Part shown: piece by piece, positions 1 to 63,897 of the stretch | Position numbering within the stretch: position 1 is the stretch's first letter | How the letters are laid out: the number at the start of each line of letters is the position of its first letter | Source of the DNA: an uncultured Eubacteriales bacterium | GTDB taxonomy: Bacteria; Bacillota; Clostridia; Lachnospirales; JAISER01 | Assembly (NCBI GenBank): GCA_964500895.1 | Contig: CAZCQP010000003.1 | Span: 35,044 to 99,043 of the forward strand | Length of the DNA stretch: 64,000 bases | Direction of reading: 5' to 3' | The notes under the pieces: generated by a model | Databases searched by the model: none | What the model was told of the DNA's origin: nothing | The model's input: the letters and a program-made list of their open reading frames with translations, nothing else | Position numbers and translations under genes: made by a program

Positions 1-393
1 CTCCCAGTGGATTGGTTCTGTATTGTTTCAATTGCAGGATGTACTTTGGAATAGTTTGAATCACGTAGGTGTACCTATTTGGTTAAACAATATGTTGGTT
101 TTGGGCATTTATAGAGTGGTTGCCTGGGTGGTGTCTGTGATGTTGCCCCCAATGGCTATTTTCTTTCCATTGTTTACCCTCTTGGAAGATTTGGGCTATT
201 TGCCCCGGGTGGCTTTTAACCTGGACTATCAATTTAAAAAGTGCTGTGCTTGCGGAAAGCAAGCGCTAACTATGTGCATGGGATTCGGATGCAACGCTGC
301 GGGGGTGGTAGGGTGCCGCATTATTGACTCCCCAAGGGAACGTTTAATTGCCATTCTTACCAATAACTTTGTGCCCTGCAACGGCCGGTTTCC
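1..393 (+). pseudogene. feoB: Ferrous iron transporter FeoB, upstream portion of a split gene (enters from window edge)
   Basis: Translation has FeoB membrane-domain motifs (FPLFTLLEDLGYLPRVAF, ILTNNFVPCNGRFP). After codon CCG at 392 it runs into 17 unrelated codons and a stop at 448. The expected continuation FPTLLALITIFF is at 12514. Confidence 0.85.
389..393. other. attL core of element 1 (TTTCC, repeated at 12514..12518)
   Basis: This is the only sequence shared at the two feoB break points. It sits in the same codon phase (TTT CCN = Phe-Pro) in both halves. Confidence 0.7.
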
Positions 394-423
394 GCCACCA
401 CACAAAGAGCAACACTATGCCGT

Positions 424-624
424 CTATTTAACTCCCTCCTGTGATTGAAGGATGGATAGCATTTTATCAATAACGGCTATCTTTTGTTCCGTGGTGAGCT
501 GCGACTGGTTTAACCTTCGCTCTATGACGTCTGCGTGAAACTGGCTTATGGGCTGGGCAAGGGCGTGTACATTGTTGTTATTGGTGGTATGTACGATAAT
601 GTTTTGAACATGGTTTTTTCTCAT
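424..624 (-). CDS. Small element-end protein (66 aa), candidate recombination directionality factor or regulator
   Basis: The ORF starts at MRKNHVQNIIVHTTNNNN..ADVIERRLNQSQLTTEQK. It resembles the small ORF at 42283..42450 in pattern (I.VH..N...V.....I......V..RL....T.E.K) and in position at the left end of the other element. Confidence 0.45.
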   Translation of the reverse strand: MRKNHVQNIIVHTTNNNNVHALAQPISQFHADVIERRLNQSQLTTEQKIAVIDKMLSILQSQEGVK

Positions 625-767
625 GCACACACTCCATTTCAAAAGCAATGTAGTGACAATGTATGCATGCACCGATTCGTCCAATAACAAAAAGAAAACG
701 AGAAAAAGCAGGGTTAATAAACAATGTTTTAACCAATAAAAATTAAAATTATTGTAGTCAAAGCAAG

Positions 768-782
768 TAATTGCAACAATTA
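768..782. promoter_or_regulatory. Perfect 6+3+6 palindrome TAATTG-CAA-CAATTA, with a related AATTG-CA-CAATT at 803..814; possible operator
   Basis: Read directly in the AT-rich spacer between the small ORF and the LacI-family regulator gene. Confidence 0.25.
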
Positions 783-911
783 AAAATTAAAACCTTTAGG
801 AAAATTGCACAATTATGCATTAAAGATTTATACAAAATATCTATTGCATGATTTGAAAAAAATGGTATGATTATGTTACACCGTGCTCGGACACGGTAGT
901 GAGGTGAGTGC

Positions 912-1940
912 TTGAAAGTTACTATAAAACGTATTGCAGAACTGGCAGGTGTATCAAGAGGCACCGCAGACAGGGTGTTAAATGGCAGAGGGGGCGCCAG
1001 CAAAGAAACAACCGAAAAAGTGCTGCAAATTGCCCAAAGCTTAGACTATAAGCCCAATGTAGCGGCCAAAGCGCTGGCGATGAAGCGGTACAGCAAAAAA
1101 AAGATTGGCGTGATACTCAATGCCCAGAGTAATCCGTTTTATGATGATGTGATTGAGGGCGTACATGAGCAGGCTAAACTTATTGCCGACTTAGGTTTTG
1201 AAGTGGTGGTAAAAACTGCAAAAGGTTATGATGTGCAACAACAAAGTGGGCTTATTGGCCAATTTATGGAAGATCAAATTTGCGGGCTGGCCATTTCCCC
1301 CATTAATGATATAGAGATAGCCAATAAAATTAATGAACTGGCCAACAGTGGCATTCCTGTTGTCACCGTTAACACAGACATTGAAAAGTCTAAGCGTTTG
1401 GCGTATGTGGGCAGCAATTACGAAAAGGGCGGCCGCATTGCAGCCGGTTTGTTTGGCATGACCTGTGGGCAAACAGAAAAAATTGGCATCGTCACAGGCT
1501 CTTTAAAGGTGCTGGGGCACAATTTGCGCATAAAAGGTTTTAAATCATGCATTAACCAAGACTTTCCCCGCATATCCATTGCGGATATATATGAATGTAA
1601 CGATAACGATGCGTTGGCATACCAGGTAACCAAGGAAATGCTTTTAAAAGACCAAGACATGACGGGTGTGTTTTTCACAGCCGCAGGCACAAAAGGCGGG
1701 CTTGAAGCCGTAAGAACAGTTTGCCCCCATAAAAAATTAAAAGTGGTTACTTTCGATTTTGTTCAGACAATTAAAGAAAACTTGCTGAACGATACCATCA
1801 TGGCCACCATTTGTCAGGAACCGTATCAGCAAGGGTTTTTAAGTATTAAGGTACTTTACGAATATATCATGTCGGGCATTTTGCCTGAAAGTGAATATAT
1901 TATTACAGACACATTTGTGAAAACAAAGTATAACCTGTAA
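912..1940 (+). CDS. LacI-family transcriptional regulator (TTG start)
   Basis: N-terminal [26 protein letters not shown] followed by a periplasmic-binding-protein-like sugar-binding fold. Confidence 0.85.
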
Positions 1941-1986
1941 TCAAGTAATGAAGGCTTGCTTCAACAGCAAACTAAAGGGGGATTAT

Positions 1987-3300
1987 ATGCATACTTTTTT
2001 TGAAAACATACCCGCCATCAAGTATGAGGGTAAGGACAGCACAAACCCGTTAGCATTTAAGCACTATAACCCGGAACAAATCATTATGGGCAAACCCATG
2101 AAAGAACATTTAAAGTTTGCCATGAGCTATTGGCACACCATGTGCGGCGCTGGTGGGGACCCTTTCGGCTCTCCCACGGTAGACAGAAGCTATGGGCAAG
2201 AAAACCCCATGGATATGGCCAAAGCAAAGGCAGACGCTGCCTTTGAATTTATGACCAAAATGGGCATTGAATATTTTTGTTTCCACGATGTAGACATTGC
2301 GCCGGAAGGCAACAGTTTAGAAGAATTTAAAGCCAATCTGGAAGAAATGACGGATTATATTAAGCAGCTGATGGATAAAACCGGAATCAAATTGCTGTGG
2401 GGAACGGCAAACCTGTTTTCCCACCCACGGTATATGCATGGCGCGGGAACTTCCCCTTATGCGGATGTTTTGGCCTGCGGGGCGTTTCAAATTAAAAATG
2501 CCATAGATGCCACCATTAAGCTGGGTGGTGCAGGGTATGTTTTCTGGGGCGGCCGTGAAGGTTATGAAACCCTGTTAAACACAGACATGGGGCTGGAGCT
2601 GGACAACATGGCCCGTTTAATGAAAATGGCAGTGCAGTATGGCCGTGCACAAGGGTTTAAAGGGGATTTCTACATAGAACCAAAACCAAAGGAACCCACC
2701 AAACATCAGTATGATTTTGACACGGCCACTGTTTTGGCATTCTTGCAAAAATACGGTTTAAAAGACGATTTTAAAGTGAACATAGAAGCCAACCACGCAA
2801 CCCTTGCCGGCCACACTTTCCAGCATGAGCTGGTGCTGGCCCGTGTGAATGGCATATTCGGCTCTATTGATGCCAACCAAGGCGACTACCTGCTGGGTTG
2901 GGACACAGACCAATTCCCTACCAACGTGCATGAAACCACCTTGTGTATGCTGGAAGTTTTAAAAGCAGGGGGCTTTACCAACGGCGGCCTGAACTTTGAT
3001 GCCAAGTTAAGACGGGGTTCTTTTCAGCCGGTGGACTTCTTCCACGCATACATCGGCGGGATGGATGCCTTTGCGTTGGGGCTTATCAAAGCAGCCAAGG
3101 TAATGGAAGACGGCCGTTTGAATCAATTCGTGGAAGAACGGTACAAAAGCTACCAATCCGGCATTGGCGCCAAAATTGTGGCAGGTGAAACAACTTTAGA
3201 AGAACTGGCAGCTTATGCGGCCAACATCCCAAATCCCACAGTGCAAAGTGGCGGGCAGGAGTATTTAGAAGGCGTTCTAAACCAAGTGATTTATTCTTAA
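1987..3300 (+). CDS. xylA: Xylose isomerase
   Basis: Motifs [30 protein letters not shown] and [24 protein letters not shown] lies before the ATG at 1987. Confidence 0.95.
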
Positions 3301-3318
3301 ATTAAGGGTGAATGTAAA

Positions 3319-4833
3319 GTGAAATACGTCATCGGCATAGACATTGGCACATCCGGCACAAAAACTTTGCTTGTAAGCCAAGCGGGGAAAATTGTTGCAT
3401 CGGCAAGTGCAGAATACCCTTTGTACCAGCCCCAAAACGGCTGGGCAGAGCAAGACCCTAACCACTGGTGGCAGGCCACGTGCACAACCATTCAATCTGT
3501 TTTAGTCCAGTCTGGCATAATGCCTGAAGAAATTGAAGGTATTGGTTTGTCCGGGCAAATGCACGGGCTGGTTATGCTGGATGTTAATGGTGAAGTGATT
3601 CGCCATGCCATTCTTTGGTGTGACCAGCGCACCGCCCAAGAGTGCGCAGACATTAACGGTTTGGTTGGTGAACAACGCCACGTTGAAATTGCGGCTAATC
3701 CACCCCTTACGGGTTTTACATCCCCTAAAATATTGTGGGTGCGCAAGCACGAACCAGAGCACTATGCCAAATGCCATAAAATATTGCTGCCAAAAGATTA
3801 CATCCGCTATAAGCTGACCGGGGAATTTGCCACGGAAGTGTCGGATGCTTCGGGCATGGGGCTGCTGGATGTGAAGGGCCGTTGCTGGTCTGAAGAAATA
3901 TTGGAAAAGTTGGACATAAACATCAACCTGCTGGGTAAGATGCATGAGTCTGTGGAAATTACCGGCCGGGTGACCCAACAAGCTTCCCAACAAACCGGCC
4001 TTGCAGAAGGCACGTTGGTGGCAGGTGGGGCTGGCGATAATGCAGCCGCAGCTGTAGGCACCGGCATTGTAAAAGATGGAAGGGCCTTTACGACCATTGG
4101 CACTTCCGGGGTGGTATATGCCCACACCTCCACACCCGTCATCGAATCAAAGGGGCGGATACATACGTTTTGTTCAGCTGTGCCCGGGGAATGGCATGTG
4201 ATGGGCGTCACCCAAGGGGCAGGCCTTTCCCTTCGCTGGTTGCGGGACACGGTGTGTACGGAGGAAGCGGCGGAAGCCAACATGCAGGGCACCGACCCAT
4301 ACGATGTGATGGCTAAAGAAGCAGAAACGGCACCCATTGGTGCTGAAAGTCTGGTGTTTCTGCCCTACTTAATGGGCGAGCGCACCCCCCATTTAAACCC
4401 CAACGCAAGGGGCGTGTTTTTCGGCTTGTCCCCCGTACATCATAGAAGCCACATGATTCGCAGCGTTATGGAAGGGGTTAGCTATTCACTGATGGACTGC
4501 CTGGCCTTGCTCAAAGAAATGGACATTGTCTGCAACGACATGACCATTTGCGGTGGGGGAGGGCGTAGCGCCTTCTGGTGCCAAATGCTGGCAGATATTT
4601 TTGGCAGCCCGGTGAAAACACTGCAAAGCGCAGAAGGCCCGGCTTTAGGTGTGGCCATTCTGGCAGGGGTTGGCGCCGGTTGGTTTCAAACCGTGGAAGA
4701 AGGTTGCCAACAGTTTTTGGCTACGAAAAAAAGCTATGAACCCCAAAACGAAAACAAACCGGCTTACGATAAGTATTATGACATTTATAAAAACCTTTAC
4801 AAAGATTTGGCCACACGGTTTAACGATTTGTAA
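3319..4833 (+). CDS. xylB: Xylulokinase (FGGY family, GTG start)
   Basis: YVIGIDIGTSGTKTLL, GLSGQMHGLV, GGAGDNAAAAVGTG. Immediately downstream of xylA. Confidence 0.9.
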   Translation: MKYVIGIDIGTSGTKTLLVSQAGKIVASASAEYPLYQPQNGWAEQDPNHWWQATCTTIQSVLVQSGIMPEEIEGIGLSGQMHGLVMLDVNGEVIRHAILWCDQRTAQECADINGLVGEQRHVEIAANPPLTGFTSPKILWVRKHEPEHYAKCHKILLPKDYIRYKLTGEFATEVSDASGMGLLDVKGRCWSEEILEKLDININLLGKMHESVEITGRVTQQASQQTGLAEGTLVAGGAGDNAAAAVGTGIVKDGRAFTTIGTSGVVYAHTSTPVIESKGRIHTFCSAVPGEWHVMGVTQGAGLSLRWLRDTVCTEEAAEANMQGTDPYDVMAKEAETAPIGAESLVFLPYLMGERTPHLNPNARGVFFGLSPVHHRSHMIRSVMEGVSYSLMDCLALLKEMDIVCNDMTICGGGGRSAFWCQMLADIFGSPVKTLQSAEGPALGVAILAGVGAGWFQTVEEGCQQFLATKKSYEPQNENKPAYDKYYDIYKNLYKDLATRFNDL

Positions 4834-4882
4834 TTAAAGACGCAACCACGATCAAACTTCATATTTTAAGGAGGTTTATGCC

Positions 4883-5875
4883 ATGGGAAAAAGACTTGTT
4901 ACATTATGCACATGCCAGTGGGCAGATTTGCCTTTGGAGGAGCTGTGCCAGTTGGCAGTACAAATGGGCTATGACGGCCTGGAACTGGCTTGCTGGGGCA
5001 ACGGTGTAGATTTGGACAAAGCCGCCGCAGACGACGGCTATGTAGCTGAAGTTTTAAACACCCTTAAAAAGTATAACCTGCAATGCAAGGCACTGGCCAC
5101 CCACATCATTGGCCAATGCGTGGGGGATGCCCCAGACGTGCGCTTGAACAACTTTGCCCCCCCTCAACTGGCCGATAAGCCGGAAGAAATTCGGCAATGG
5201 GGCATTGAGACTATGAAAAAAGCCGCCATTGTGGCTAAGAAAATGGGTGTTAAAGTCATTACAGGCTTTACCGGTTCCCCCATCTGGAAGTTTGTATACT
5301 CCTTCCCACAAACCACAGAGCAAATGGTGGAAGAAGGTTTTGACGAAATTGTACGGTTGTGGACGCCCATTTTGGAAGTGTTCAAAGAAAATGATGTGAA
5401 ATTTGCTTTGGAAGTGCACCCGGGGGAAATTGCTTTTGATTATTACTCCACCCAAAAACTACTGAAAAAGTTTGAGGGCGTTGAAGCATTTGGGCTGAAC
5501 TTTGACCCCAGCCATCTGCTGTGGCAAGGCATTAAGCCAGAGCTTTTCCTGCGGGATTTCATGCACAAAGTATACCATGTACATATGAAAGACGTGGCCG
5601 TAACGCTGGACGGCAGAAGCGGCATTTTAGGTTCCCACATTGATTTTGGCGACTTGCGCCGTGGCTGGAACTTCCGTTCTTTAGGCCATGGGGATGTAAA
5701 CTTTGAAGAAATTATCCGTACACTCAATGCTGCCGGTTACGACGGCCCGCTTTCCGTGGAATGGGAAGACAGCGGCATGGACCGCATTGAAGGGGCAACA
5801 GAAGCTGCTGCATTTGTGAAGAAAATTGACTTTAAAGCTTCCGATTTTAAGTTTGACGATGCCATTGCAAACTAA
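4883..5875 (+). CDS. Sugar phosphate isomerase/epimerase (xylose-isomerase-like TIM barrel)
   Basis: Family-typical pattern (GYDGLELA, ALEVHPGEIAF, HVHMKD, SVEWED). Confidence 0.75.
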   Translation: MGKRLVTLCTCQWADLPLEELCQLAVQMGYDGLELACWGNGVDLDKAAADDGYVAEVLNTLKKYNLQCKALATHIIGQCVGDAPDVRLNNFAPPQLADKPEEIRQWGIETMKKAAIVAKKMGVKVITGFTGSPIWKFVYSFPQTTEQMVEEGFDEIVRLWTPILEVFKENDVKFALEVHPGEIAFDYYSTQKLLKKFEGVEAFGLNFDPSHLLWQGIKPELFLRDFMHKVYHVHMKDVAVTLDGRSGILGSHIDFGDLRRGWNFRSLGHGDVNFEEIIRTLNAAGYDGPLSVEWEDSGMDRIEGATEAAAFVKKIDFKASDFKFDDAIAN

Positions 5876-5902
5876 TTTGAAACAATGGAAGGAGGATTGT
5901 GC

Positions 5903-7051
5903 ATGAAACGTGTGACATACGGCATGGTGGGCGGGCATCTTCATGCCTTTATCGGTGAGGTACACCGCAAAGCTTTAAATTATGACAACCGAGCCCGTTT
6001 GGTTGCCGGATGCTTTAGCTCCGATGCTGAAAAGAACAATGAAACCGGCCAGGCCTACAGCTTAGAGGACGGCCGGGTTTATGCAAGCTACGCCGATATG
6101 GCAGAAAAAGAAAGTGCACGTGAAGACGGCATTAACTTTGTTATCATCACCACGCCAAATCATTTGCATTATGCGGTGTCTAAGGCGTTTCTGGAAAAAG
6201 GCATTCATGTGGTGTGCGAAAAGCCTTTGTGCTTTGAAGTGGCGCAAGCCCAGGAACTGGTGGAGCTGGCAGAAAAGAAAAACCTGCTCTTTGCCGTTAC
6301 ATATTCATACACCGGCTACACCATGATTAAAGTTATGAAAGAAATGATTGCAAACGGGGCCATTGGCAATGTGGTGTCTGTAAATGGCGAATACATTCAG
6401 GAATGGCTCATTGACAACCTTTCCCCGGAACAACCAGGCACAGCAAAACTTTCTGTGTGGCGTACAGACCCTCAATATTCCGGCGTATCCAATTGCGTGG
6501 GGGATATTGGCACCCACATTGAAAACATGATTCACTATTTAACAGGTTTAAATATCAAGCGTTTGGCCGCTACCGTTAACCGTTTTGGGCACCCGCTGGA
6601 CTTAAACGCCAACATGCTCATCGAATACGACAACGGGGTGAACGGTGCATACTGGTGTTCCCAAATTGCAGCCGGTAAGTTGAACGGGTTTAAAGTGCGT
6701 ATTTATGGGGATTTAGGGGCACTGGAATGGGAACAACACTTCCCAGACTACGTTCAGTATACGCCAAAAGGCAAACCCACCCAAACCCTTTCCAGAGGCA
6801 CAGGTTATATCACGGAACAAGCGGGCGGATACAGCCGCATCCCCTCCGGCCACCCTGAAGGGCTGTATGTGGCGTTTGCTAACATGTACAAAAACATCAT
6901 CAGTGCGGTGTTAAAGCTGAAAGAAGGCCAGCAGCTTACCGAAGCAGATATGGATTTTGCAACGGTGAAGGACGGCTTAAATGGTGTGAAATTTGTGCAT
7001 GCCGTGATGGAAAGCGCAGAAAAAGGCGCTTGCTGGGTTGATGTAAACTGA
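5903..7051 (+). CDS. Gfo/Idh/MocA family oxidoreductase
   Basis: N-terminal Rossmann segment, ITTPNHLH and EKPL motifs. RBS AAGGAGG lies before the ATG at 5903. Confidence 0.8.
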   Translation: MKRVTYGMVGGHLHAFIGEVHRKALNYDNRARLVAGCFSSDAEKNNETGQAYSLEDGRVYASYADMAEKESAREDGINFVIITTPNHLHYAVSKAFLEKGIHVVCEKPLCFEVAQAQELVELAEKKNLLFAVTYSYTGYTMIKVMKEMIANGAIGNVVSVNGEYIQEWLIDNLSPEQPGTAKLSVWRTDPQYSGVSNCVGDIGTHIENMIHYLTGLNIKRLAATVNRFGHPLDLNANMLIEYDNGVNGAYWCSQIAAGKLNGFKVRIYGDLGALEWEQHFPDYVQYTPKGKPTQTLSRGTGYITEQAGGYSRIPSGHPEGLYVAFANMYKNIISAVLKLKEGQQLTEADMDFATVKDGLNGVKFVHAVMESAEKGACWVDVN

Positions 7052-7114
7052 GCATAGATGGTTTATGCAAGGTTTATATATGTACTGAAAATATAAAAAA
7101 ATGGAGGTCAAAGT

Positions 7115-8191
7115 ATGAAAAAAGCAATTGCATTAGGGCTTGCGCTGGTAATGTCTACCGCACTCCTGTTCACCGGATGCAGTTCTTCCACACCGGCTCC
7201 GTCTCCGGAAGCGCCTGCCGCTGAAGAACCGGCAGCCGAAACACTAGCTGTGCAAGAAGCACCCGCAGCAGACGGGGAAATTTCCATTCTCATTCCAGGT
7301 GCCACCCACGGTTGGCCGGTAGGCGTGTTGTACTACGCCAATGAGAAGCAAAAAGAGCTGGAAACATTAGGCCAAAAAGCGGTTGTATACACAGCAGACA
7401 CCGCACAAGCCCAGATTGAGAAACTGGAAGACTTGATGACCCGTTCCGACATTAAAGGCGTGATGATTTTACCTTTTGATAACAGCGTGGTCAACGCCGT
7501 TAAAGGCATGGAAGGCAAAGTACCTTTCGTTATGTTCGACCGTATTCTTGAAGGCGTCAATTCCAACGCCAACGTAATGGGCGACAACTTCGGCATTGGG
7601 TACGAAACCGCCAAGATTTTCCTTGAAAAAGGGCTGCAAAAAACCGACAAAATTTTAGAAATGCCTGGCGACAACTCCAGCGTTCCTGAAATGCGTTCCA
7701 ATGGCTTTAGAGAAGGCTTGAAAACACAAGGCGGCTGGACGGACGAAGAACTGAACGCTGCTATCTTCAAAACCGACTTCACTGGTTGGAGCCGTGACAA
7801 TTCCAAAACCTTGTTCGAGGGCTTCGTAGGCTCTAAAACACAAGAAGAACTTGATCAATACAAGTTTATCTTCACCCATGACGATGAAATCGCCATTGGT
7901 ATCTTCAACGCTATTCAAGCAGGCAACCTGGGCAAAAACATTGACAAAGTTGAAGTTTTAGCCGCTTCTGCCGGTAACCAAGAAATGTACAACATTCTGA
8001 ATGATGGCACCTATGCCGACCAGTTCTATCTGTTCTCTCTCACCTACCCGCCATACATGGTGCAAGACGCCATTGACGTGTTGGTGCAAGTGTTGAACGG
8101 CGAAACGGTTGACAAAGAAATTGTTATCCCTGTTAAAAAAGTGGATAGCACCAATGCCAAAGACTACTTAAATCCTGATTCACCTTATTAA
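7115..8191 (+). CDS. Sugar ABC transporter substrate-binding lipoprotein
   Basis: Lipoprotein signal (LLFTGC), Ala/Pro/Glu-rich linker, then a periplasmic sugar-binding fold. Confidence 0.8.
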   Translation: MKKAIALGLALVMSTALLFTGCSSSTPAPSPEAPAAEEPAAETLAVQEAPAADGEISILIPGATHGWPVGVLYYANEKQKELETLGQKAVVYTADTAQAQIEKLEDLMTRSDIKGVMILPFDNSVVNAVKGMEGKVPFVMFDRILEGVNSNANVMGDNFGIGYETAKIFLEKGLQKTDKILEMPGDNSSVPEMRSNGFREGLKTQGGWTDEELNAAIFKTDFTGWSRDNSKTLFEGFVGSKTQEELDQYKFIFTHDDEIAIGIFNAIQAGNLGKNIDKVEVLAASAGNQEMYNILNDGTYADQFYLFSLTYPPYMVQDAIDVLVQVLNGETVDKEIVIPVKKVDSTNAKDYLNPDSPY

Positions 8192-8275
8192 TCCGTTTCC
8201 TCTAGCAAAGGCTGTATGATGCAGTGCTTTATACAGCCTTTGCTTATAAAGTTTGCGAATAAGCGGGGGTCAAAC

Positions 8276-9790
8276 ATGCAGTTATTGGAAATGACAAACA
8301 TAAGCAAGTCGTTTTTTGGTGTTAAGGTATTAAACAATGTGACCCTCACAGTAGGCGAGGGCGAAACCCATGCCCTGCTGGGCGAAAACGGCGCAGGGAA
8401 ATCCACGCTGATGAACATTCTTGGCGGCGTTCACGAACGAGACAGCGGGGAAATTGTGCTTAACGGCAAAAAGATTGATAAAATCACCACCAAAACCGCT
8501 TCAGAGCTGGGCATTGCATTTGTACACCAGGAATTGAACCTTTTTAATGATCTAACCGTTTTTGAAAACATTTTTTTAAGAGAAGAAATTGTTAACCGCT
8601 TTGGAAAAGTGATGAACAAGGAAATGATTCAGTCTGTGGCGGTGCTTTTTGACGACCTGGGCGTGGAGATAGACCCTACAGTCATGGTGAGTGAATTGGA
8701 CACTGCCCAAAAGCAGCTACTGGAAATTGCCAAAGCTTTGCGCAAAGACGCCAACATTTTCATTATGGACGAGCCAACAACTGCCTTGGGTAATGCTGAA
8801 ATTGAAAAATTATTTGCTATCATTAACCGGCTGAAAGCAAAAGGGAAATCTTTTATCTTTATTTCCCATAAAATGCCAGAAATATTTACAATTGCCGATA
8901 AGTACACGGTGCTTAGAAACGGCAACTATGTGGGCTCTGGCCTTATTTCTGAAACCACGCCGGAAGCCGTTACCAAATTAATGGTGGGTGAATCCTACGA
9001 TAACAGTGACGTGTACAAGGAAAGGAAATTAACGGAACCTGTGTTGGAGCTTGAAAACTTTACCGGCACCGGTTTTACAGATATAAATTTAAAAATTTAC
9101 AAGGGTGAAATATTTAGTTTAACCGGGTTGCATGGGGCAGGGTGCAGTGAACTGTTGCAGTGTATGTTTGGCATAACACAGCCCACATCGGGCACCATGA
9201 AGGTGGCCGGAAAGGTTTACAATTGCAGCGGCATTCACCATGCCATGAAAAATAAAATTGCCATGCTGCCCTCTAACCGCAAAGAAAACTCTATTATTCC
9301 AGACATGAACTTGCTGGAAAATGCATACATATCCGAACATACGTTAAGCAGCGCAAAACAACATATATTCAAAAAAAATGAAGTCAGTAAATATAACCAT
9401 CTAAGCAAAATGCTCAACATTAAAGCCAATAACCACAATGACCTGATTGTTAGCCTAAGCGGTGGAAACCAGCAAAAAGTTGTTTTGGCCAAATGGCTGA
9501 ACACCCAGGCGGACATCTTTTTGTTCGACAACCCCACCCAAGGTATTGACGTTGGAGCCAAAAATGAAATTTATAAGCTGATTGTAGAGCTATCCAATCA
9601 AGGAAAGACCGTCATTGTGAATACGTTAGAAATATCTGAAATACAAAAAATATCAGACAGATGCGCAGTGTTTTACCATTCACATTTGCAAGTGGTGTTG
9701 GACAGGCAAAATATTAACGAGAAAACGGTGATGCTTTATGCCACAAATGCAGTCAGTATTTCGGAGGGTGACTATGAACAAGCAGAATAA
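8276..9790 (+). CDS. Sugar ABC transporter ATP-binding protein (two fused ABC domains)
   Basis: Walker A GENGAGKST, signature LSGGNQQK, duplicated ABC modules. RBS GGGGG lies before the ATG at 8276. Confidence 0.9.
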   Translation: MQLLEMTNISKSFFGVKVLNNVTLTVGEGETHALLGENGAGKSTLMNILGGVHERDSGEIVLNGKKIDKITTKTASELGIAFVHQELNLFNDLTVFENIFLREEIVNRFGKVMNKEMIQSVAVLFDDLGVEIDPTVMVSELDTAQKQLLEIAKALRKDANIFIMDEPTTALGNAEIEKLFAIINRLKAKGKSFIFISHKMPEIFTIADKYTVLRNGNYVGSGLISETTPEAVTKLMVGESYDNSDVYKERKLTEPVLELENFTGTGFTDINLKIYKGEIFSLTGLHGAGCSELLQCMFGITQPTSGTMKVAGKVYNCSGIHHAMKNKIAMLPSNRKENSIIPDMNLLENAYISEHTLSSAKQHIFKKNEVSKYNHLSKMLNIKANNHNDLIVSLSGGNQQKVVLAKWLNTQADIFLFDNPTQGIDVGAKNEIYKLIVELSNQGKTVIVNTLEISEIQKISDRCAVFYHSHLQVVLDRQNINEKTVMLYATNAVSISEGDYEQAE

Positions 9791-10766
9791 CGCTCAAAAA
9801 GAATCCATTTTAAAATGGCTGTGGTTTAATTTTAACTATGTTATCATTTTCTTTGTTATTTTTATTGCCTACTTAATTGTGAACGGCAAAGCCACCAACT
9901 GGGCAGCCATTACAAACATTATGCGCCACAGCTCCATCATTGGCATTGTGGCGTTGGCCATGGGGCTTATCATTCTTATCGGCAACATTGATTTGTCTGT
10001 AGGGTCAACGGTGGCATTAGTGGGCGGGTTTTCGGTGCTGGTGTTTAATGCTACGGGCAGCCTGGCACTGACCATTGTTTTCGGCATAGCGGCAGGTGGT
10101 GTTGCAGGGCTTATAAACGGTCTTTTAATTGGTAAGATTCGTATGCCTGCCTTCATCGCCACTCTGGCTACCATGATGATGTACCGTTCAGTTTCCCAGT
10201 ATTATTTAAGCAATACGGGTGTGGCCATGTATAAAATAGATGCCAATGCCGCCCAATATGATGCATTTTTTGCCTTGGGTAACGGCAATCAGTTTACCAT
10301 TCCCATTTTAACCATCATTTTTATTGTCATTGCCTGCATATTAATTTATGTAACAACCTCCACCAAATTCGGCAAAACGTTGTACGCCATTGGTAGCAAC
10401 GAAAAAGCCGCCAAATTAAGCGGTATTAACACCGAACGGGTTCGGGTGGTTGTATACGTAATAGCAGGGGCATTGGTTGGTTTGGCAGCGGTTATGTTTG
10501 CGGGGCAAAACGGAACCATCACCCCGTCTTCTGCGGGCAAAAACTATGAGCTTTATGCCATTGCGGCGGTAGTGATTGGTGGCCTTGAAATGTCTGGCGG
10601 CCGGGGCAAAATAATGGGCGTTATATTCGGTATGCTTACGTTTACAGTTATTGATAAAATCATTCTGTCCTTGGGGTATAACCCCCTCATTAATGATACC
10701 ATCAAAGGGGCTATTCTGCTTATTGCCATTATGCTGCAATTGCTGCAAAGCAGAAGGAAAGCCTAG
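9774..10766 (+). CDS. Sugar ABC transporter permease (ribose/xylose-type)
   Basis: Multi-pass hydrophobic protein with the GNIDLSVGS motif. The start overlaps the end of the ATPase gene. Confidence 0.85.
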   Translation: MNKQNNAQKESILKWLWFNFNYVIIFFVIFIAYLIVNGKATNWAAITNIMRHSSIIGIVALAMGLIILIGNIDLSVGSTVALVGGFSVLVFNATGSLALTIVFGIAAGGVAGLINGLLIGKIRMPAFIATLATMMMYRSVSQYYLSNTGVAMYKIDANAAQYDAFFALGNGNQFTIPILTIIFIVIACILIYVTTSTKFGKTLYAIGSNEKAAKLSGINTERVRVVVYVIAGALVGLAAVMFAGQNGTITPSSAGKNYELYAIAAVVIGGLEMSGGRGKIMGVIFGMLTFTVIDKIILSLGYNPLINDTIKGAILLIAIMLQLLQSRRKA

Positions 10767-10796
10767 TACCTACAAAAGCTTAATCCATACAAAAGC

Positions 10797-10827: not shown

Positions 10828-10853
10828 ACTTTCTTAGAGGATGGTGATAGCTT

Positions 10854-12479
10854 TTGAAATTTTTTATATACAGCCGTAAGTCTGTCTATACCGGAAAGGG
10901 CGAAAGCATTGAAAACCAAATTGAAATGTGCAAACAGTACATTTTTACAAAGTTTCCAGGTGTAACGGATTTGGCGATGACCGTGTACGAAGATGAAGGT
11001 TTTTCAGCAAAGGATACGGCCAGGCCCCAGTTTCAAAAAATGTTAAAGGACATGAAGCAGGAAAAGCCAGACTTTGTGGTTTGCTACCGGCTGGACCGTA
11101 TCAGCCGTAATGTCAGCGACTTTTCTGCACTGATAGAAGAATTAAATGACCGCAGCATTTCCTTTGTATGCATTAAAGAAGAGTTTGATACTTCAAAACC
11201 AATGGGTAAGGCCATGATGTACATTGCTTCGGTTTTCGCCCAGTTAGAACGGGAAACCATTGCCGAACGGGTTCGTGATAATATGCTTATGCTTGCCCGC
11301 ACGGGGCGGTGGCTTGGGGGTACGACACCCACAGGGTATACGTCAGAAAAGGTGCAAGAGGTGATTGTAGACGGAAAAATGAAAACTGCTTGCAAGCTTA
11401 AAGAGAACCCAGAAGAGCTTCGGGCCGTTGACATGATGTTTGAAAAGTTTTTGGAACTGCGCAGCATATCCGGCGTAAGCAAACATCTGATGAAGCAGGG
11501 CATAAAGTCACGCAGAGGCAAACCTTACACCTTGCTCGGCATTAAAGAGATTTTGCAAAACCCGGTTTATTGCATGGCAGATAAAGATGCGTTGGACTAC
11601 TTTACCAAACAAAAGGCAGACGTTTGCTTCGAGGCAAAGGATTGTACGGATAAATATGGGCTGTTGTCGTACAACAAGCGTGATTACAAGAAAAAACACG
11701 CCCCAAGGCAACCTATAGATAAATGGATTATTGCCATGGGCAAACATAAGGGGCGAATACCAGGGCAAAAGTGGGTAACCGTGCAAAAGATACTGGCAGA
11801 CAACATGCCCACAGGCAAAAAATCTTCCAATATGCATAACGATTACGCTTTGCTTTCCGGGCTTATTTTCTGTGAAAAGTGTGGTAGCCGGATGTTTGCA
11901 AAGCCTCGCAGGAGTAAAGGCGCAAACCCTGATTTATTTGACTATATATGCAACAGTAAAATGCGTGGTGGCATGGCACTTTGCGATTGCCAAAACATTA
12001 GCGGGCAGCAAGCGGACGATATGGCCTGTGCATATCTGATGCAGTACACCAACGGGCATTCAAGCATTCATAAGCAACTGGAAAAGCTAAAAAGTGATTT
12101 GCAGAGCCGGGAACGTGAAAATCCCATGGCTGTACTCGAGGCAAGCATTAAAAAATGCAGCGAAGAAATGAACAATCTGGTAAATTCACTGACCCAAACA
12201 GGCCTTGGCACAGCATTCATACAGCGTGTTAATGACCGGATGACCACCCTGGACCAAGAGCTTACAGCGCTAAACAAAACCCGCAACCAGCTAGAGAAAG
12301 ATGCTGGTGGCATCTTTCAAAAGGAAATGCAGGTAGAACGGTTAGCCACTATGCTTATTAGCAAAAAAAGTTACTTTAATGCATTGACCATTCACGAAAA
12401 GCGTGTTTTAATTAAATTGATAGTAAAGAAAATGGTTTGGAATGGAAGGGACCTACATATTTTTATAAACGGTGCTTAG
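10854..12479 (+). CDS. Large serine recombinase (element 1, TTG start)
   Basis: Resolvase catalytic domain (IYSRKS, YRLDRISRN), recombinase domain, Cys-rich zinc-ribbon region (CEKCGS...C..C.C) and a C-terminal coiled coil. Ends 35 nt before the attR core. Confidence 0.9.
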   Translation: MKFFIYSRKSVYTGKGESIENQIEMCKQYIFTKFPGVTDLAMTVYEDEGFSAKDTARPQFQKMLKDMKQEKPDFVVCYRLDRISRNVSDFSALIEELNDRSISFVCIKEEFDTSKPMGKAMMYIASVFAQLERETIAERVRDNMLMLARTGRWLGGTTPTGYTSEKVQEVIVDGKMKTACKLKENPEELRAVDMMFEKFLELRSISGVSKHLMKQGIKSRRGKPYTLLGIKEILQNPVYCMADKDALDYFTKQKADVCFEAKDCTDKYGLLSYNKRDYKKKHAPRQPIDKWIIAMGKHKGRIPGQKWVTVQKILADNMPTGKKSSNMHNDYALLSGLIFCEKCGSRMFAKPRRSKGANPDLFDYICNSKMRGGMALCDCQNISGQQADDMACAYLMQYTNGHSSIHKQLEKLKSDLQSRERENPMAVLEASIKKCSEEMNNLVNSLTQTGLGTAFIQRVNDRMTTLDQELTALNKTRNQLEKDAGGIFQKEMQVERLATMLISKKSYFNALTIHEKRVLIKLIVKKMVWNGRDLHIFINGA

Positions 12480-12513: not shown

Positions 12514-13251
12514 TTTCCTACACTGCTTGCGCTCATTACCATTTTCTTTGCCATGGGGGCAACGGGGGTGTGGCAAAGCGTACTAAGCGCCATCATACTT
12601 ACAGGCATTATTGCACTGGGCGTAGCGGCCACTTTTTTAGCATCCAGATTTTTGTCTGGTACGGTGCTAAAAGGTACACCATCGTCCTTTACTCTGGAAC
12701 TTCCTCCTTACCGCAAGCCCCAAGTGGCCAAAGTGTTGGTGCGGTCGTTGTTTGATAGAACCCTCTTTGTGTTGGGCAGGGCGGTGAGCGTGGCGGCACC
12801 TGCGGGGTTAATCATTTGGCTTATGAGCAACATCGTTGTTGGAGATGTAAGCCTTTTGGCCCACTGTGCTGGCGTTTTAGACCCCTTTGCCAGGTTGTTG
12901 GGCATGGATGGTATTATTATGATGGCATTCATCCTTGGTTTTCCGGCCAATGAAATTGTGTTGCCCATCATTTTAATGGCATACTTGTCCCAAGGTACGT
13001 TAATGGAACCCACCAGCATGGAAAATTTGCGTACATTGCTGCTGGACAATGGCTGGACCGGAGTGACGGCAATTTGTGTGATGTTATTTTCGCTTATGCA
13101 TTGGCCCTGTTCCACCACTTGCCTAACCATTCGTAAAGAAACGGAAAGCATGAAATGGACGGCGGTAGCCTTCGTTTTGCCTACAGTTCTGGGCATGGCA
13201 GCCTGTTTTCTGGTGGCTACAGTGGCTCGGCTTCTAGGGCTGGGTCTATGA
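12514..13251 (+). pseudogene. feoB: FeoB, downstream portion of the split gene
   Basis: FPTLLALITIFF..LELPPYRKP..GFPANEIVLPI..HWPCSTT is the C-terminal FeoB membrane region. It is in phase with 1..393 across TTTCC. Confidence 0.85.
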
Positions 13252-21718: not shown

Positions 21719-23287
21719 ATGTCTTATGAGCTGGTCAGAGAGCGCATTGTTCTTGACGAAAAAATAGCCAAGGAGACCACCCAGGTATTGCTGGAGGGGG
21801 ACTTGATTGTACCGGATGTAAAGCCGGATGTATCTGTGGTGCTGCAAGCCGAAGCAAAAGCCAGCATAGACCGGGTGGATGCCGGCAGCAACCGGGTGAA
21901 TTTCGCAGGCAAGCTGTCTGTGCAAGTGCTGTATTTGGCACGGGGCAGTGAAAAGCCCGTACATAGTTTAACCCTTGTAACACCCATTGACGATTTTTTA
22001 AACATTGAAGGGGTAGGCAAGGACACCTGGGTGGAGGTAACCACCCACATTACCAACTTGGACTACAAAATGATTAACGACCGCAAAATTAACTATCGGG
22101 CTGTGGTGGACGTATGCGCCCAGTGTGAATGCACCAATGAACACGACATCATCACCCACATTAACAATGTGCCGGAAAATCAGCTTTTGAAAAGCAACCT
22201 TTTAATTAACCGGCGTGTGGACAATAAAGTAGAGCGCTTTGTGGTGAAAGATGAAATGCCGTTGCCTTCCGGCAAGCCCAACATCCGTGAAATTTTACAG
22301 TGCAGCATTTCTGTAGCCAACAAAGAAGTGCGTATGCATAACGGTCGTGTAGCTGTGAACGGTGAACTGTTGGTTTCCACCTTGTACCGGGGGGACAATG
22401 ACACCAGCATCATTGAGTTTGTGGAGCACGAAATGCCCTTCAACGGCAGCCTGGAGCTTTCCGGTGCGAAAGAAGACATGATGGCCGATGTGACCTTATC
22501 CGTCATCGAGCAATATGTGCAGCCCATCCAGGACAATGACGGGGAGGAACGGGTTTTAGAGGTGGAAGTTTCCATGAGCGCTATGGTGAAAGTGCATTGC
22601 CAGGAATCTATGGAGATTTTAGAAGATGCCCATTGCATTAATAAAAACTTGGTCATTAATAAAACACCCATGCAATATCCCAAACTGATTTGCCGCAACA
22701 AGAACCAGTCCCCCATTAAAGAAGTGGTGCAGCTCACCGATGAATGCCCAGACATTTTGCAAATTTTCCGGGTAAAGGGCCGTGCCATTGTAGACGATGT
22801 GAGCATCATTGACGACAAAGTGGTGGTGGAAGGGGCCATTGAAGCCAGCGTGCTTTATGTAGCGGAAAATGACCAAATGCCGCTATATTCCCACAATACC
22901 ATGGTGCCTTACCGCCAAACCATAGAAACAAAAGGGGCACTACCGGGAATGATGCCAGAGCTTTCTGCCAGCGTAGACCATGTGGCCTTTAACATGCTAA
23001 GCGGCAGAGAAATGGAGTTGCGGTTCCTGCTAAGCTTTAACACTCAGGTGTTTAACGTGATGGAAATGAACATGGTAACGGACATTTCCTTTGAGGACAT
23101 GGACAAAGCTGTGTTGGATTCCATGGCCAGCATGACCATCTATGTGGTGCAAAAAGAAGACACCCTGTGGCACATTGCCAAGAAATACAACACGTCTGTG
23201 GATGAGTTGATGAGCGTGAATGACATTGAAGACCCGCAGCGGGTGCCGGCTGGGCAAAGACTGCTTATTTTGAAAAAGGTTTGCTAA
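21719..23287 (+). CDS. DUF3794-repeat protein with C-terminal LysM domain (SipL/SpoVID-like coat morphogenetic candidate)
   Basis: C-terminal LysM (YVVQKEDTLWHIAKKYNTSVDELMSVNDI). The size and architecture match clostridial SipL-type proteins. Strong RBS AAGGAGG. Confidence 0.65.
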   Translation: MSYELVRERIVLDEKIAKETTQVLLEGDLIVPDVKPDVSVVLQAEAKASIDRVDAGSNRVNFAGKLSVQVLYLARGSEKPVHSLTLVTPIDDFLNIEGVGKDTWVEVTTHITNLDYKMINDRKINYRAVVDVCAQCECTNEHDIITHINNVPENQLLKSNLLINRRVDNKVERFVVKDEMPLPSGKPNIREILQCSISVANKEVRMHNGRVAVNGELLVSTLYRGDNDTSIIEFVEHEMPFNGSLELSGAKEDMMADVTLSVIEQYVQPIQDNDGEERVLEVEVSMSAMVKVHCQESMEILEDAHCINKNLVINKTPMQYPKLICRNKNQSPIKEVVQLTDECPDILQIFRVKGRAIVDDVSIIDDKVVVEGAIEASVLYVAENDQMPLYSHNTMVPYRQTIETKGALPGMMPELSASVDHVAFNMLSGREMELRFLLSFNTQVFNVMEMNMVTDISFEDMDKAVLDSMASMTIYVVQKEDTLWHIAKKYNTSVDELMSVNDIEDPQRVPAGQRLLILKKVC

Positions 23288-41900: not shown

Positions 41901-41933
41901 TAAAAATGAAATGTGTTAAGGAGGGGCAATTTC

Positions 41934-42048
41934 TTGAAAACTTATATTGAAGAAAGAGCCGTGGAAGTGGCAAATTTTATTATTAAAAACGATGCAACCG
42001 TCCGTGAGACAGCCAAAAAATTTGGCATTAGCAAATCTACTGTACATA
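41934..42048 (+). pseudogene. spoIIID: spoIIID, 5' part of a split gene (38 codons with the HTH; TTG start)
   Basis: LKTYIEERAVEVANFIIKNDATVRETAKKFGISKSTVH after RBS AAGGAGGGG. It then reads MDVI-stop (42060..42062) instead of the conserved KDVTERL. Confidence 0.85.
42044..42048. other. attL core of element 2 (ACATA, repeated at 63729..63733)
   Basis: This is the only sequence shared at the two spoIIID break points, and it is in the same codon phase. Confidence 0.7.
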
Positions 42049-42282
42049 TGGATGTCATATAAAAGAACGTTTCTTAGGTGTGAGGTATTTAAGCAAATGA
42101 TGGTGTGGGCGTTGCACAAAAAAAAATGGTGTTTTTTACGACCATATTTTATTGTAACAACCCAATTTAATAAATAAAACATTTTTGTTTTTGGTTTGTT
42201 TTTTTTAATAAATTTTTGGTTTGGGGTGTAAAAAAAAAATTGGGTTTTGTTTTACCAAATTTTTTTAGTGGAACGCCCACTT

Positions 42283-42450
42283 TTAAGTAAGAACGCCTTT
42301 TTGCTTTTCTTCTGTGTTTATACTGCGCTCGACAGACTCGGCAAGCCTTGTCCGTACCAGTTCTGCGCAAATTTTTATCAGCTCGTCAACCACCTGATGC
42401 ACCGGGTTCGGGTTATGAAAGGTTATGTGCAGGTGTTGCGGCTTTTTCAA
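42283..42450 (-). CDS. Small element-end protein (55 aa, TTG start), candidate directionality factor or regulator
   Basis: Hand translation: LKKPQHLHITFHNPNPVHQVVDELIKICAELVRTRLAESVERSINTEEKQKGVLT after AAAGGGGG. Same position, orientation and pattern as 424..624. Confidence 0.4.
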   Translation of the reverse strand: MKKPQHLHITFHNPNPVHQVVDELIKICAELVRTRLAESVERSINTEEKQKGVLT

Positions 42451-42519
42451 GCAAGCACCCCCTTTTTGCTTTACACCATTCTATGTCCTTAAACCCGTAT
42501 AAATGAAAAACAAAAAATG

Positions 42520-62075: not shown

Positions 62076-62155
62076 TAGCCATCGGATATAGCTCCCTTTT
62101 GATGATTGTCACAATCATTTTATGGAGCACCGATGGTTTTCTACTCCCATCCTTT
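62076..62155 (-). repeat. Right arm of the inverted repeat (overlaps the recombinase leader)
   Basis: See the left arm. The arms bracket a 655 bp core (61421..62075) with no convincing ORF. Confidence 0.85.
62102..62118. promoter_or_regulatory. Perfect 8+1+8 palindrome ATGATTGT-C-ACAATCAT (operator-like), overlapping a weak TTGATG-N16-TATGGA promoter-like pattern facing the recombinase gene
   Basis: Read directly, ~80 nt upstream of the recombinase ATG. The copy in the left arm (61377..61394) is degenerate. Confidence 0.35.
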
Positions 62156-62198
62156 TTGCAATTTATGCTACTCTATCAAAGAAAACAAGGGTGATGCT

Positions 62199-63734
62199 AT
62201 GCGAACCGTTGCGTATTGCCGTGTTTCTACAAGTAAAGATGAACAATTAGACAGTTTAGCAGCACAGCAAAGGTTTTTTACGGAGTATTCAGAAAAGAAC
62301 AATTATCATTTAGTCCAAATATATGCCGATGAGGGTAAGAGTGGAACGAAGCTTAAAAACCGCACACAGCTTCTGAAGCTTTTGGCAGATGCTAAAAAGC
62401 AAATGTTTGATATTGTGCTTATCAAAGACGTTTCGCGGCTTGCCAGAAACACTGTTGACTTTTTGACGAGCATACGTGCGCTCAAGGCATTAGGGGTTAA
62501 GGTTGTATTTGTGAATTACGACCAAACCGATTCAGACAGTTCGGAATTTATGCTTACATTGCTTTCAGCAATTGCGCAGGAGGAATCAGCAAACACATCA
62601 AAGCGTGTGAAGTTTGGAAAGAAGATGAACGCCGAAAAAGGGCGTGTTCCTAACATTGTATACGGATACAACAAGCAAGTTGGGGACTACTTTAGCCTAG
62701 AAATTAACGAGCCCGAAGCACAGGTTGTTAGGGACATCTTTGATATGTATGTTAATGAAAATTTTGGAGCAAATAAAATAGCCATGACATTAAACGCTAA
62801 AGGGTATAAAACAAAACGTGGCTGTAAGTGGACGCAAAATGCCATTGCAAGGATTTTGGCCAACCAAATTTACATAGGCCGGGTTATCAATGGCAAGGAA
62901 GAAGTGGAGGATTTTCTAACAGGCAAGCGAAAAGAGAAAAATCAGCATGAATGGATTATAACCGAAAATGAAGCGCTGCGCATTATACCAGATGAGCTGT
63001 TTGATAAGGCTCAAAAAACATTAGCGCAAAGAACCCAAACTTTTAATATAACAGGGGAACGTAATTCAGACAAGCATGTTTTCAGCAAGCTTATCAAATG
63101 TTCTTGTTGTCATTCGTCATTCAGGCAATCCGTTAGAACATATAAAAATACATACACCAAGTGGGTATGCACAGGGCGCAATGCCAAAGGAGCTGGGTTT
63201 TGTATCAATAAAACTGTTATTGATGAAGCTCAACTTTTAGAAGCAATTAAAGCATACTTTGTTGAGCTGTTAATGCAGAAACCCAGCTTTATTAAAAGTA
63301 AAATTAATCAACTCAATAGACTTTATCAATCGAAAGATGAAAACGTGCAATCGGAAAAGACCCTCATGCGTGAAAGAAACCGACTAAATAAACTGAAACA
63401 AAAACAAATTGAGATGTATGAAGCCGACATCATCAGCCTTGATGCATTAAAAGAACGCACACAAGAACTGGATGCACACCTTGTAAGCGTGGATGAGCAG
63501 CTGCATATGATTCAAATGAATGTGAGCAAAAGTGATATGTTTAAAAATGCATTAATGGAAACCTTTTGCGACATAGAGAATGGGTTGAAAGCCGAGCATT
63601 TCACCAATGCCATGCTAAACAGGGTGATAGAGAAAATAACCGTAGACGAAAACGGCAAAATTGATGTGTACCTACGTTTATTAAGTGACATCGGTATGGA
63701 AAATAGCGTTCTATTAAGCAACGACCAAACATAA
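62199..63734 (+). CDS. Large serine recombinase (element 2, SpoIVCA/CisA-like)
   Basis: VAYCRVSTSKDEQ catalytic Ser, IKDVSRLARN, recombinase domain, Cys cluster (CSCCHS...C...C) and a long C-terminal coiled coil. The start is taken at MRTVAY after AAGGG. The stop TAA overlaps the attR core. Confidence 0.9.
   Translation: MRTVAYCRVSTSKDEQLDSLAAQQRFFTEYSEKNNYHLVQIYADEGKSGTKLKNRTQLLKLLADAKKQMFDIVLIKDVSRLARNTVDFLTSIRALKALGVKVVFVNYDQTDSDSSEFMLTLLSAIAQEESANTSKRVKFGKKMNAEKGRVPNIVYGYNKQVGDYFSLEINEPEAQVVRDIFDMYVNENFGANKIAMTLNAKGYKTKRGCKWTQNAIARILANQIYIGRVINGKEEVEDFLTGKRKEKNQHEWIITENEALRIIPDELFDKAQKTLAQRTQTFNITGERNSDKHVFSKLIKCSCCHSSFRQSVRTYKNTYTKWVCTGRNAKGAGFCINKTVIDEAQLLEAIKAYFVELLMQKPSFIKSKINQLNRLYQSKDENVQSEKTLMRERNRLNKLKQKQIEMYEADIISLDALKERTQELDAHLVSVDEQLHMIQMNVSKSDMFKNALMETFCDIENGLKAEHFTNAMLNRVIEKITVDENGKIDVYLRLLSDIGMENSVLLSNDQT
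63729..63733. other. attR core of element 2 (ACATA)
   Basis: Matches 42044..42048. Confidence 0.7.
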
Positions 63735-63897
63735 AGATGTTACAGAACGATTGATTAAAATTAACCCCAAATTGGCAGGCGAAGCACGCAGAGTGCTGGA
63801 AGTGAACAAATCCCAGCGCCATATTCGTGGAGGGCTGGCTACGAAAGAAAAATACATGACGCTGCCGGGAAGCATTGGGTTGAAAAAACTGAAATAG
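63733..63897 (+). pseudogene. spoIIID: spoIIID, 3' part of the split gene (54 codons)
   Basis: KDVTERLIKINPKLAGEARRVLEVNKSQRHIRGGLATKEKY... is the conserved SpoIIID C-terminal region. It is in phase with 41934..42047 across ACATA, giving a 92-codon ORF. Confidence 0.85.

Follow-up and report, generated by a model that had tools for sequence, protein, structure and literature searches.

The window analysed here, a 64,000-nt stretch of the genome of an uncultured Eubacteriales bacterium (contig CAZCQP010000003.1, 35,044-99,043), contains two insertions driven by large serine recombinases (LSRs), Element 1 and Element 2, each of which splits a host gene and has a small open reading frame (ORF) at its left end and the LSR gene at its right end. 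We propose that these small ORFs, ORF1 and ORF2, probably encode recombination directionality factors (RDFs), each cognate to the LSR of its element. The elements carry cargo and belong to two unrelated LSR-driven lineages, one of which splits feoB and the other spoIIID. Each small gene is conserved and occurs exclusively with a single LSR clade; among the complete elements compared, nothing but this gene and the LSR gene is constant, and pairs of LSR and small ORF without cargo between them occur in both lineages. One mark of the RDF class is encoding on the same element as one cognate LSR and co-inheritance with it, and this is what we observed for both ORFs.

Element 1 (394-12518, 12.1 kb) interrupts feoB, the 5′ part of which stops at ...NGRFP on a TTTCC core and the 3′ part of which restarts after the second copy of this core. 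Its cargo, between ORF1 and the recombinase gene LSR1, comprises a LacI-type regulator and sugar kinase, isomerase-like, oxidoreductase and ABC-transporter genes. Element 2 (about 42056-63741, 21.7 kb) interrupts spoIIID at GATGT, where the two halves join in frame, and precise excision would rebuild the gene. In splitting a mother-cell sporulation gene in frame, Element 2 matches the sporulation-gene intervening elements (skin, gin and SPbeta type); Element 1, which splits an iron transporter gene, does not. Since two further intact feoB copies are present in the same genome, the split copy may simply be tolerated. LSR1 and LSR2 each have Resolvase, Recombinase and Zn_ribbon_recom domains. 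The first-pass annotation, made from the sequence alone, had suggested that both insertions belong to one family, which is not supported in view of the 24% identity between LSR1 and LSR2, their different targets and att cores, and small proteins for which homology could not be shown.

The layout described in that annotation, with a small outward-facing ORF on the left and a recombinase on the right, holds for both elements. ORF1 and ORF2 are, as it stated, minus-strand ORFs of 66 and 55 codons, and the start of ORF1, placed about 230 nt inside attL, measures 231 nt from the core. From this geometry it follows that the small ORF and the LSR gene would converge across attP in the excised circle. 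The claim that both ORFs lie at a similar distance from attL is true only roughly, with ORF1 extending from 31 nt (stop) to 231 nt (start) and ORF2 from 228 nt (stop) to 395 nt (start) from the core. Both genes have good Shine-Dalgarno sites (GGAG 7 nt 5′ of the ORF1 start; GGGGGTG before the TTG of ORF2).

Conservation and linkage of the two small genes

A word-based homolog search, insensitive and superseded by profile searches, retrieved one relative of ORF1 (P0002, 57% identity) and none of ORF2, and tblastn of the bacterium's own genome revealed a third ORF1 look-alike on contig C38. A profile seeded with ORF1, P0002 and the C38 homolog, from which ORF2 was deliberately excluded, recovered 473 cluster representatives at E ≤ 0.001, including 51 at E ≤ 1e-10; the 150 representatives listed of these 473 are 47-126 aa long, mostly 55-70 aa, and none of the 10 clusters looked up carries a name. 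Scanning GTDB species genomes with a 12-sequence ORF1 alignment, which covers only the close 'MRKN' subtype, gave 41 pattern matches, 21 of which encode an ORF1 relative.

Fragments of feoB are present at 16 of these 21 loci, and at nine the 3′ end of the ORF directly abuts the feoB fragment across the att arm TTTGTGTGGTGGC. The arrangement of the window, with the ORF convergent toward the feoB 5′ part, recurs at six loci (L002, L006, L014, L017, L021 and L022), and the ORF reads toward the feoB 3′ part at L003, L004 and L010. A second LSR element lies between ORF and feoB at L007, L009, L011, L016 and L019; at L013 the feoB 5′ part and an LSR lie 5′ of the ORF, and the L018 contig stops 172 nt past the ORF, with the LSR and the feoB 3′ part at its opposite end. 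Ten of the 21 loci have an LSR within the fetched ±10 kb, and at L004 the LSR is 11.5 kb away on the same contig. At the junctions the ORF is followed by the att arm TTTGTGTGGTGGC and then by host DNA, an order which indicates that the ORF belongs to a conserved LSR - attP - ORF module. At L003, L004 and L010 it is the feoB 3′ part that adjoins the small-ORF arm, so that their gene content is inverted relative to the core.

When all frames of at least 40 aa were compared with one another by BLASTP, the LSR, with its shadow frames, and the small ORF were the only coding regions shared among the five complete feoB elements (the window, L002, L014, L018 and L022). The remaining cargo is unrelated and covers sugar catabolism, type I restriction-modification, NrdD/NrdG, glycosyltransferases, and AAA_21 with RloB. 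Two apparently cargo-free loci, with the host junction visible on the LSR side only, reduce the pair further: L042 has a feoB 3′-like part, the LSR and a divergent ORF at a distance of 360 nt, and L043 has the ORF, the LSR 155 nt away and then a feoB 3′-like part, with no cargo between the two genes in either case. Among 401 genomes of the order, the source genome (G000) included, the ORF1-family profile matched 11 at E ≤ 1e-6, and 11 encode an LSR at least 59% identical to LSR1. Ten genomes are common to both lists; G030 has the LSR only and G210 only a weak partial ORF match. The LSR1 clade itself comprises more than 120 clusters at 69-78% identity.

Homologs of ORF2 are more divergent. A six-frame search found them in 8 of the 400 other genomes of the order, with weak scores (E 4.5e-7 to 4e-3), and the family is defined by the motif ...L.I.FHNPN..e....L.k..aE..., in which the F-NPN residues are invariant across a 10-sequence alignment at an overall identity of 25-40%. 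For nine loci of this FHNPN family up to 20 kb each was fetched and scanned with a hidden Markov model (HMM) of the genome's own LSRs. The ORF lies directly 5′ of an LSR gene on the same strand at six of the nine (L033, L035, L037, L038, L039 and L041), overlapping it by 1 nt at L039; at L040 the LSR is divergent and 4.6 kb away, and the contigs of L034 and L036 have no LSR. The seven FHNPN-linked LSRs are 47-57% identical to LSR2, compared with 31% or less for all other LSRs examined (this genome, feoB loci). Halves of spoIIID flank six of the nine loci. At L037 the order is spoIIID 5′ part (9508-9645), ORF (9929-10072), LSR (10099-11631) and spoIIID 3′ part (11639-11761), forming a two-gene element of about 2 kb in spoIIID whose only further frames, two overlapping ones of 48-49 codons, lie between attL and the ORF.

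The LSR2 clade (42-57% identity, E ≤ 1e-100) is present in 36 of the 401 genomes and 31 of 180 genera. For 20 further loci (L044-L063), picked through the LSR alone, the LSR and about 2.5 kb upstream were fetched. A spoIIID 3′ fragment follows just after the LSR in 17 of the 20, with a distance of about 470 nt in L062, so that spoIIID-splitting elements of this clade are common in the order. An FHNPN-family ORF was found within the fetched stretch at 10 of the 20 loci (HMM E ≤ 0.01), and at three of those without one (L056, L058 and L063) the sequence upstream of the LSR is shorter than 350 nt.

The feoB gene is also a hot spot of tandem LSR elements (L007, L009, L011, L016 and L019; also L013 and L014). 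The second feoB element carries DsbD/VanW/MCP cargo and a different LSR, which shares about 20% identity with LSR1, and lies between the ORF1-type element and feoB; at L009 a third LSR occurs near the feoB 5′ end, beside feoA. The attP arms of the ORF1-type elements form an almost perfect inverted repeat (TTTGTGTGGTGGC) with an 8-bp spacer, GCATTTCC, in the middle (window 389-406 and 12497-12518; L004:10240-10285; L002:10425-10470), and by our reading the crossover centre would be TT.

A third gene-splitting LSR element of this genome, on contig C38 (L001:3886-14186), interrupts sigK in the manner of skin, with the sigK 5′ part at L001 3886-~4215 and the LSR at 12089-13828, followed by the 3′ part. 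It carries a short-subtype ORF1 relative (7402-7578, minus strand), polyamine genes (SAM decarboxylase-like, decarboxylase, spermidine synthase-like and agmatinase-like by translation), and a 730-aa repeat protein. The 2.77-Mb genome has 16 matches to the LSR 'Recombinase' domain, with an ORF1-family gene on only two of its LSR elements and an FHNPN gene on only one; its remaining recombinases must therefore rely on different partners or on none.

Two protein families and a predicted complex with the recombinase

The first-pass annotation had noted a loose pattern shared by ORF1 and ORF2, which does not exceed chance. BLASTP aligned the two over 12 residues with E = 0.13, the ORF1-family HMM (150 members) gave ORF2 a score of 5.3 bits (E = 36 over the 42,835 frames of the genome), and hhalign of the two family alignments returned a probability of 3.5% and E = 0.012 over 36 columns, in register from residue 1 at the N-terminus. 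The AlphaFold2 models are alike in architecture, however. ORF1 has residues 1-18 without secondary structure and helices at 19-40 and 45-63 (mean predicted local distance difference test score, pLDDT, 81.9), and ORF2 has residues 1-16 extended and a single helix at 17-53 (mean pLDDT 84.7), so that the two have only this architecture in common, in which the first 16-18 residues are extended and lead into helix. Homology between ORF1 and ORF2 was rejected as unproven, and on sequence comparison we treat them as two families without demonstrable homology, on separate element lineages.

Pfam, NCBIfam and PHROGs gave nothing above cut-off for ORF1, ORF2, P0002 or the C38 homolog, and none of the 10 members of the ORF2-family alignment reaches the Pfam threshold. 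A search of the ESM Atlas returned only 'hypothetical protein' clusters (scores 0.84-0.88), and Foldseek of the ORF1 model against the PDB gave one meaningless match (E = 9.4). The profile searches that the first-pass annotation had suggested thus assigned neither ORF to a Pfam, NCBIfam or PHROGs family, and in the linkage survey that it had likewise suggested the homologs of each ORF proved to be systematically tied to a single LSR clade. Its view of the two ORFs as candidate RDFs is well supported by this linkage, by the apparent two-gene elements and by the binding of ORF1 to LSR1 that is predicted below.

The complex was predicted for LSR1 residues 320-541 (57-row alignment) and ORF1 (69-row alignment), together with three controls. 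The pair scored 0.71 and the best control 0.02; among solved complexes 116 of 157 attain the score mark, and among mismatched pairs 2 of 215, counts that are approximate since the alignments were self-made. At least 84% of contacts recur between runs, and the partner has a pLDDT of at least 77. Confidence is highest for the contacts between the conserved V-Q-N-I-I-V-H of ORF1 (residues 6-12) and LSR1 residues 532-538, a nearly invariant C-terminal stretch; the ORF1 helices contact LSR1 380-419 and 490-523. Given the Pfam zinc-ribbon match at residues 333-389, these two regions would take in the zinc ribbon's end and the two feet of the coiled coil. The model supports binding of ORF1 to its own LSR at the junction of zinc domain and coiled coil and at the C-terminal strand, and the predicted site matches DBD2 (the zinc-ribbon domain) near the coiled-coil base, where known RDFs are reported to bind. 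We know of no solved complex of the ORF1 family, so a pass by model memory seems unlikely.

We infer an effect of the small proteins on directionality, and likewise the mother-cell timing discussed in the next section. In the proposed mechanism the LSR alone would integrate the element (attP x attB). Once made, the small protein would pair its N-terminal strand with the C-terminal strand of the LSR and pack its helices on the junction of zinc-ribbon domain and coiled coil, and this binding would lift the block on attL x attR, leading to excision and to a rebuilt split gene. Excision confined to the mother cell would leave the element in the germ line.

Promoter-like motifs, alternatives and known systems

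Upstream regions of the ORF1 family contain a conserved bipartite motif, GGTAATAGGAC - 13 nt - TCATA(C/A)AAT. Searched as KMATAGG-N14-16-CATAMAAT with at most three mismatches, it is present in 18 of 23 ORF1-family upstream regions, 16 of the 18 matches lying 29-36 nt from the start codon, and in 71 of 5000 random genomic 90-mers, a control that flatters the motif because the motif was derived from the same data. The sigma-E consensus, taken as KMATAWW-13/15-CATACAHT, has a match with at most three mismatches 53-64 nt 5′ of the Phe codon in 6 of 10 FHNPN upstream regions. The number of mismatches is zero at L034 and two in the window; L041 has four at the same place, L035 has three but at 122 nt, and the upstream regions of L036 and L037 have no match. 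Scans for sigma-70 gave no convincing promoter 5′ of ORF1 or ORF2. When the sigma-E pattern was checked at spoIVA, spoIID, spoIIP, sipL, spoIIID and yqfD of this genome, matches were plausible only at sipL (2 mismatches), spoIIID (3) and one spoIIP copy (3); the start codons are uncertain, and this check is not used as evidence.

The conserved CATA-type -10 and kmATA-type -35 motifs in both families suggest expression in the sporulating mother cell, in which case the small genes would parallel sprB, skr and CD1234, which are all mother-cell genes in their expression. Promoters of sigma-E and sigma-K are described as having a common -10 and one differing -35 position (PMC517825). We tentatively hypothesise that the feoB elements use the logic of skin outside sporulation genes, a scenario that we regard as possible but doubtful, in which the helper gene has a strongly conserved promoter of the mother-cell type, excision takes place only in the disposable mother cell and the spore genome keeps the element. 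Such excision might restore feoB or free circular element DNA at mother-cell lysis.

Several points weigh against our interpretation of the small proteins as RDFs with mother-cell timing. The match at ORF1's own promoter is weak, with three mismatches, and the sigma-E-like pattern is not enriched across the window (10 matches, one of which precedes sipL, against 8.8 expected). As feoB is not a sporulation gene, a mother-cell promoter there has no obvious rationale. The ORF1-LSR1 result is a model confidence and not a measurement. Five of the 21 ORF1-relative loci are without a feoB fragment (L005, L008, L012, L015 and L020), the contig ending close beyond the ORF at L012 and about 2.3 kb beyond it at L020. 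The related genomes are not independent, with 6 of the 10 shared genomes belonging to one genus, and the ORF1 relative in the sigK element lies 3.2 kb inside attL rather than at the element end. Seven of the 20 LSR-picked loci with about 2.3-2.6 kb upstream (about 2.3 kb at L049) have no FHNPN ORF there; the gene may be farther away in these loci, or absent, and ORF2 itself is 19.7 kb from LSR2 in the window. Finally, both families are mildly basic (predicted isoelectric point 9.5 for ORF1 and 8.0 for ORF2; ORF1-family median 9.05), so the proteins could be DNA-binding regulators.

Such regulators would act as ribbon-helix-helix-like or antitoxin-like dimers on LSR or cargo expression or on element maintenance, which we consider unlikely. 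Besides the basic isoelectric points, the order of strand, helix and helix in the ORF1 model, whose N-terminal strand does not form in the monomer, is consistent with this explanation, as is the divergence of ORF and LSR over a short intergenic region at L042 and L043, a layout typical of repressors. Pfam antitoxin matches do occur (Unstab_antitox, E 0.04-0.09; RelB_like_antitoxin, E 0.037 in one ORF2-family member), but these are below threshold, and no Pfam, NCBIfam or PHROG family reaches it. The ORF1 helices (22 and 19 residues) are longer than those of ribbon-helix-helix proteins, and ORF2 is modelled as one long helix. Retention of the gene where no cargo remains to regulate, and a predicted LSR complex scoring so far above its best control, likewise speak against regulators.

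A partner need not be an RDF, and the same linkage and predicted binding would be expected of a stabiliser or chaperone, of an inhibitor that keeps the element integrated, or of a block on re-integration or on entry of a second element. The tandem arrays in feoB show that LSR elements do compete for this site. We regard these roles as quite improbable, since the characterised small LSR partners of comparable intervening elements (SprB, GirX, CD1234 and Skr) are all RDFs and the predicted site matches that reported for RDFs. Chance frames or degenerate remnants without a functional product are extremely improbable and are already refuted at the level of conservation: the ORFs are short, ORF2 starts with TTG and the word-based search found hardly any relatives, but the ORF1 family has 473 representatives, the ORF2 family retains an invariant F-NPN at 25-40% identity, and both have good Shine-Dalgarno sites, conserved upstream motifs and models with a mean pLDDT of 82-85.

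An LSR with a tiny RDF in a gene-intervening element, as in SprA/SprB, GirC/GirX, SpoIVCA/Skr and CD1231/CD1234, is a known kind of system, and the RDFs of these systems were set beside the ORF1 and ORF2 families by their descriptions and not by sequence. SprB of prophage SPbeta, which splits spsM in B. subtilis, is described as a 58-aa protein whose gene lies beside yodU with a sigma-E/K-type promoter directly upstream, and SprB and SprA together are reported to be necessary and sufficient for excision (PMC4191935). The likeness lies in a small protein without similarity to characterised proteins, encoded at the element end beside the 5′ half of the split gene; unlike SPbeta, the elements described here are non-phage, their targets are feoB and spoIIID, and ORF1 belongs to a large family of its own. 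GirX of the gin element in gerE of B. cereus is reported to have 42 aa and no conserved motif, to be needed by GirC for excision and to inhibit integration (PMC5595907). This element is likewise a non-phage gene-intervening element, and the spoIIID element of about 2 kb at L037 is a comparable minimal unit, whereas target genes and protein family differ and the elements described here often have large metabolic or cell-surface cargo.

In the skin elements of sigK, CD1234 of C. difficile (72 aa) is described as dependent on sigma-E and SpoIIID and as binding its own LSR, CD1231 (PMC5025042), and Skr of B. subtilis (64 aa) as being under sigma-E control, with its gene directly 5′ of and overlapping spoIVCA (PMC6957869). 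The FHNPN ORF of L039 also overlaps its LSR gene, and an ORF1 relative sits in the sigK-splitting element of this genome, but feoB, unlike sigK, is not a sporulation gene. RDFs are characterised in a 2025 paper (PMC12286644) as having neither sequence conservation nor synteny with the integrase gene, and family signature motifs have no occurrences in one of its supplements. Full-text literature searching, with subscription journals outside its coverage, brought up no description of spoIIID or feoB being split by such elements.

Other features of the window and significance

The features on which the two elements are defined are collected in Table 1. A 522-aa ORF (21719..23287) was considered as the recombinase of Element 1 and rejected, its product being SipL/SpoVID-like. 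The cargo of Element 2 (42520-61305) consists of a GGDEF diguanylate cyclase and a full dTDP-rhamnose/rhamnan-type polysaccharide cluster with RmlA-, RmlB-, RmlC- and RmlD-type proteins (by Pfam domains), two RgpF, an ABC-2 exporter, a pyruvyl transferase and an MBOAT protein. Directly 5′ of LSR2 (window 61336-62155), inverted repeats surround a segment of about 620-770 bp, with 48-nt arms that are 83% complementary (61392-61439 / 62056-62103) and additional 21-nt arms (61340-61360 / 62135-62155). The segment has no Rfam match at E ≤ 0.01 and could be invertible or inserted DNA.

Table 1 Positions of genes, att cores and promoter-like motifs of the two elements in the window.
Feature	Position	Strand	Remarks
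feoB 5′ portion, 3′ end (Gate domain), up to attL1 core TTTCC 389-393	2..393	+	Pfam Gate match and junction
ORF1, 66 aa, ATG start, candidate RDF of the feoB element	424..624	-	outward-facing, stop 31 nt from att core
Promoter-like motif 5′ of ORF1, TTATTGG-N15-CATACATT	658..687	-	3 mismatches to family motif
LSR1, 541 aa, feoB-targeting large serine recombinase	10854..12479	+	domain matches
attR1 core 12514-12518, then feoB 3′ portion (FeoB_C and Gate)	12514..13251	+	
spoIIID 5′ portion to attL2 core GATGT 42051-42055	41913..42055	+	Pfam SpoIIID positions 1-40 of 82
ORF2, 55 aa, TTG start, FHNPN motif, candidate RDF of the spoIIID element	42283..42450	-	
Sigma-E-like match TCATTTA-N14-CATAGAAT	42478..42506	-	ends 27 nt 5′ of ORF2 start
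LSR2, 542-aa frame, spoIIID-targeting large serine recombinase	62106..63734	+	
attR2 core GATGT 63737-63741 and spoIIID 3′ portion	63737..63897	+	

RDFs are hard to find, and two unannotated small-protein families are now tied to two abundant LSR clades. Each tie yields an integrase-RDF pair that can be tested at defined att sites and is of use in reversible genome engineering. Such pairs would also help to account for the way in which conserved genes of gut Clostridia take up and let go of cargo such as sugar-use, restriction and cell-wall polysaccharide genes. If excision occurs in sporulating cells, spoIIID would join the developmentally rearranged regulators, and the cell-surface cargo of Element 2 would leave the mother cell with it. 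Should the feoB elements indeed follow the logic of skin, developmentally timed excision would be a general way of life for LSR elements with cargo across spore-forming Clostridia, not confined to sporulation genes.

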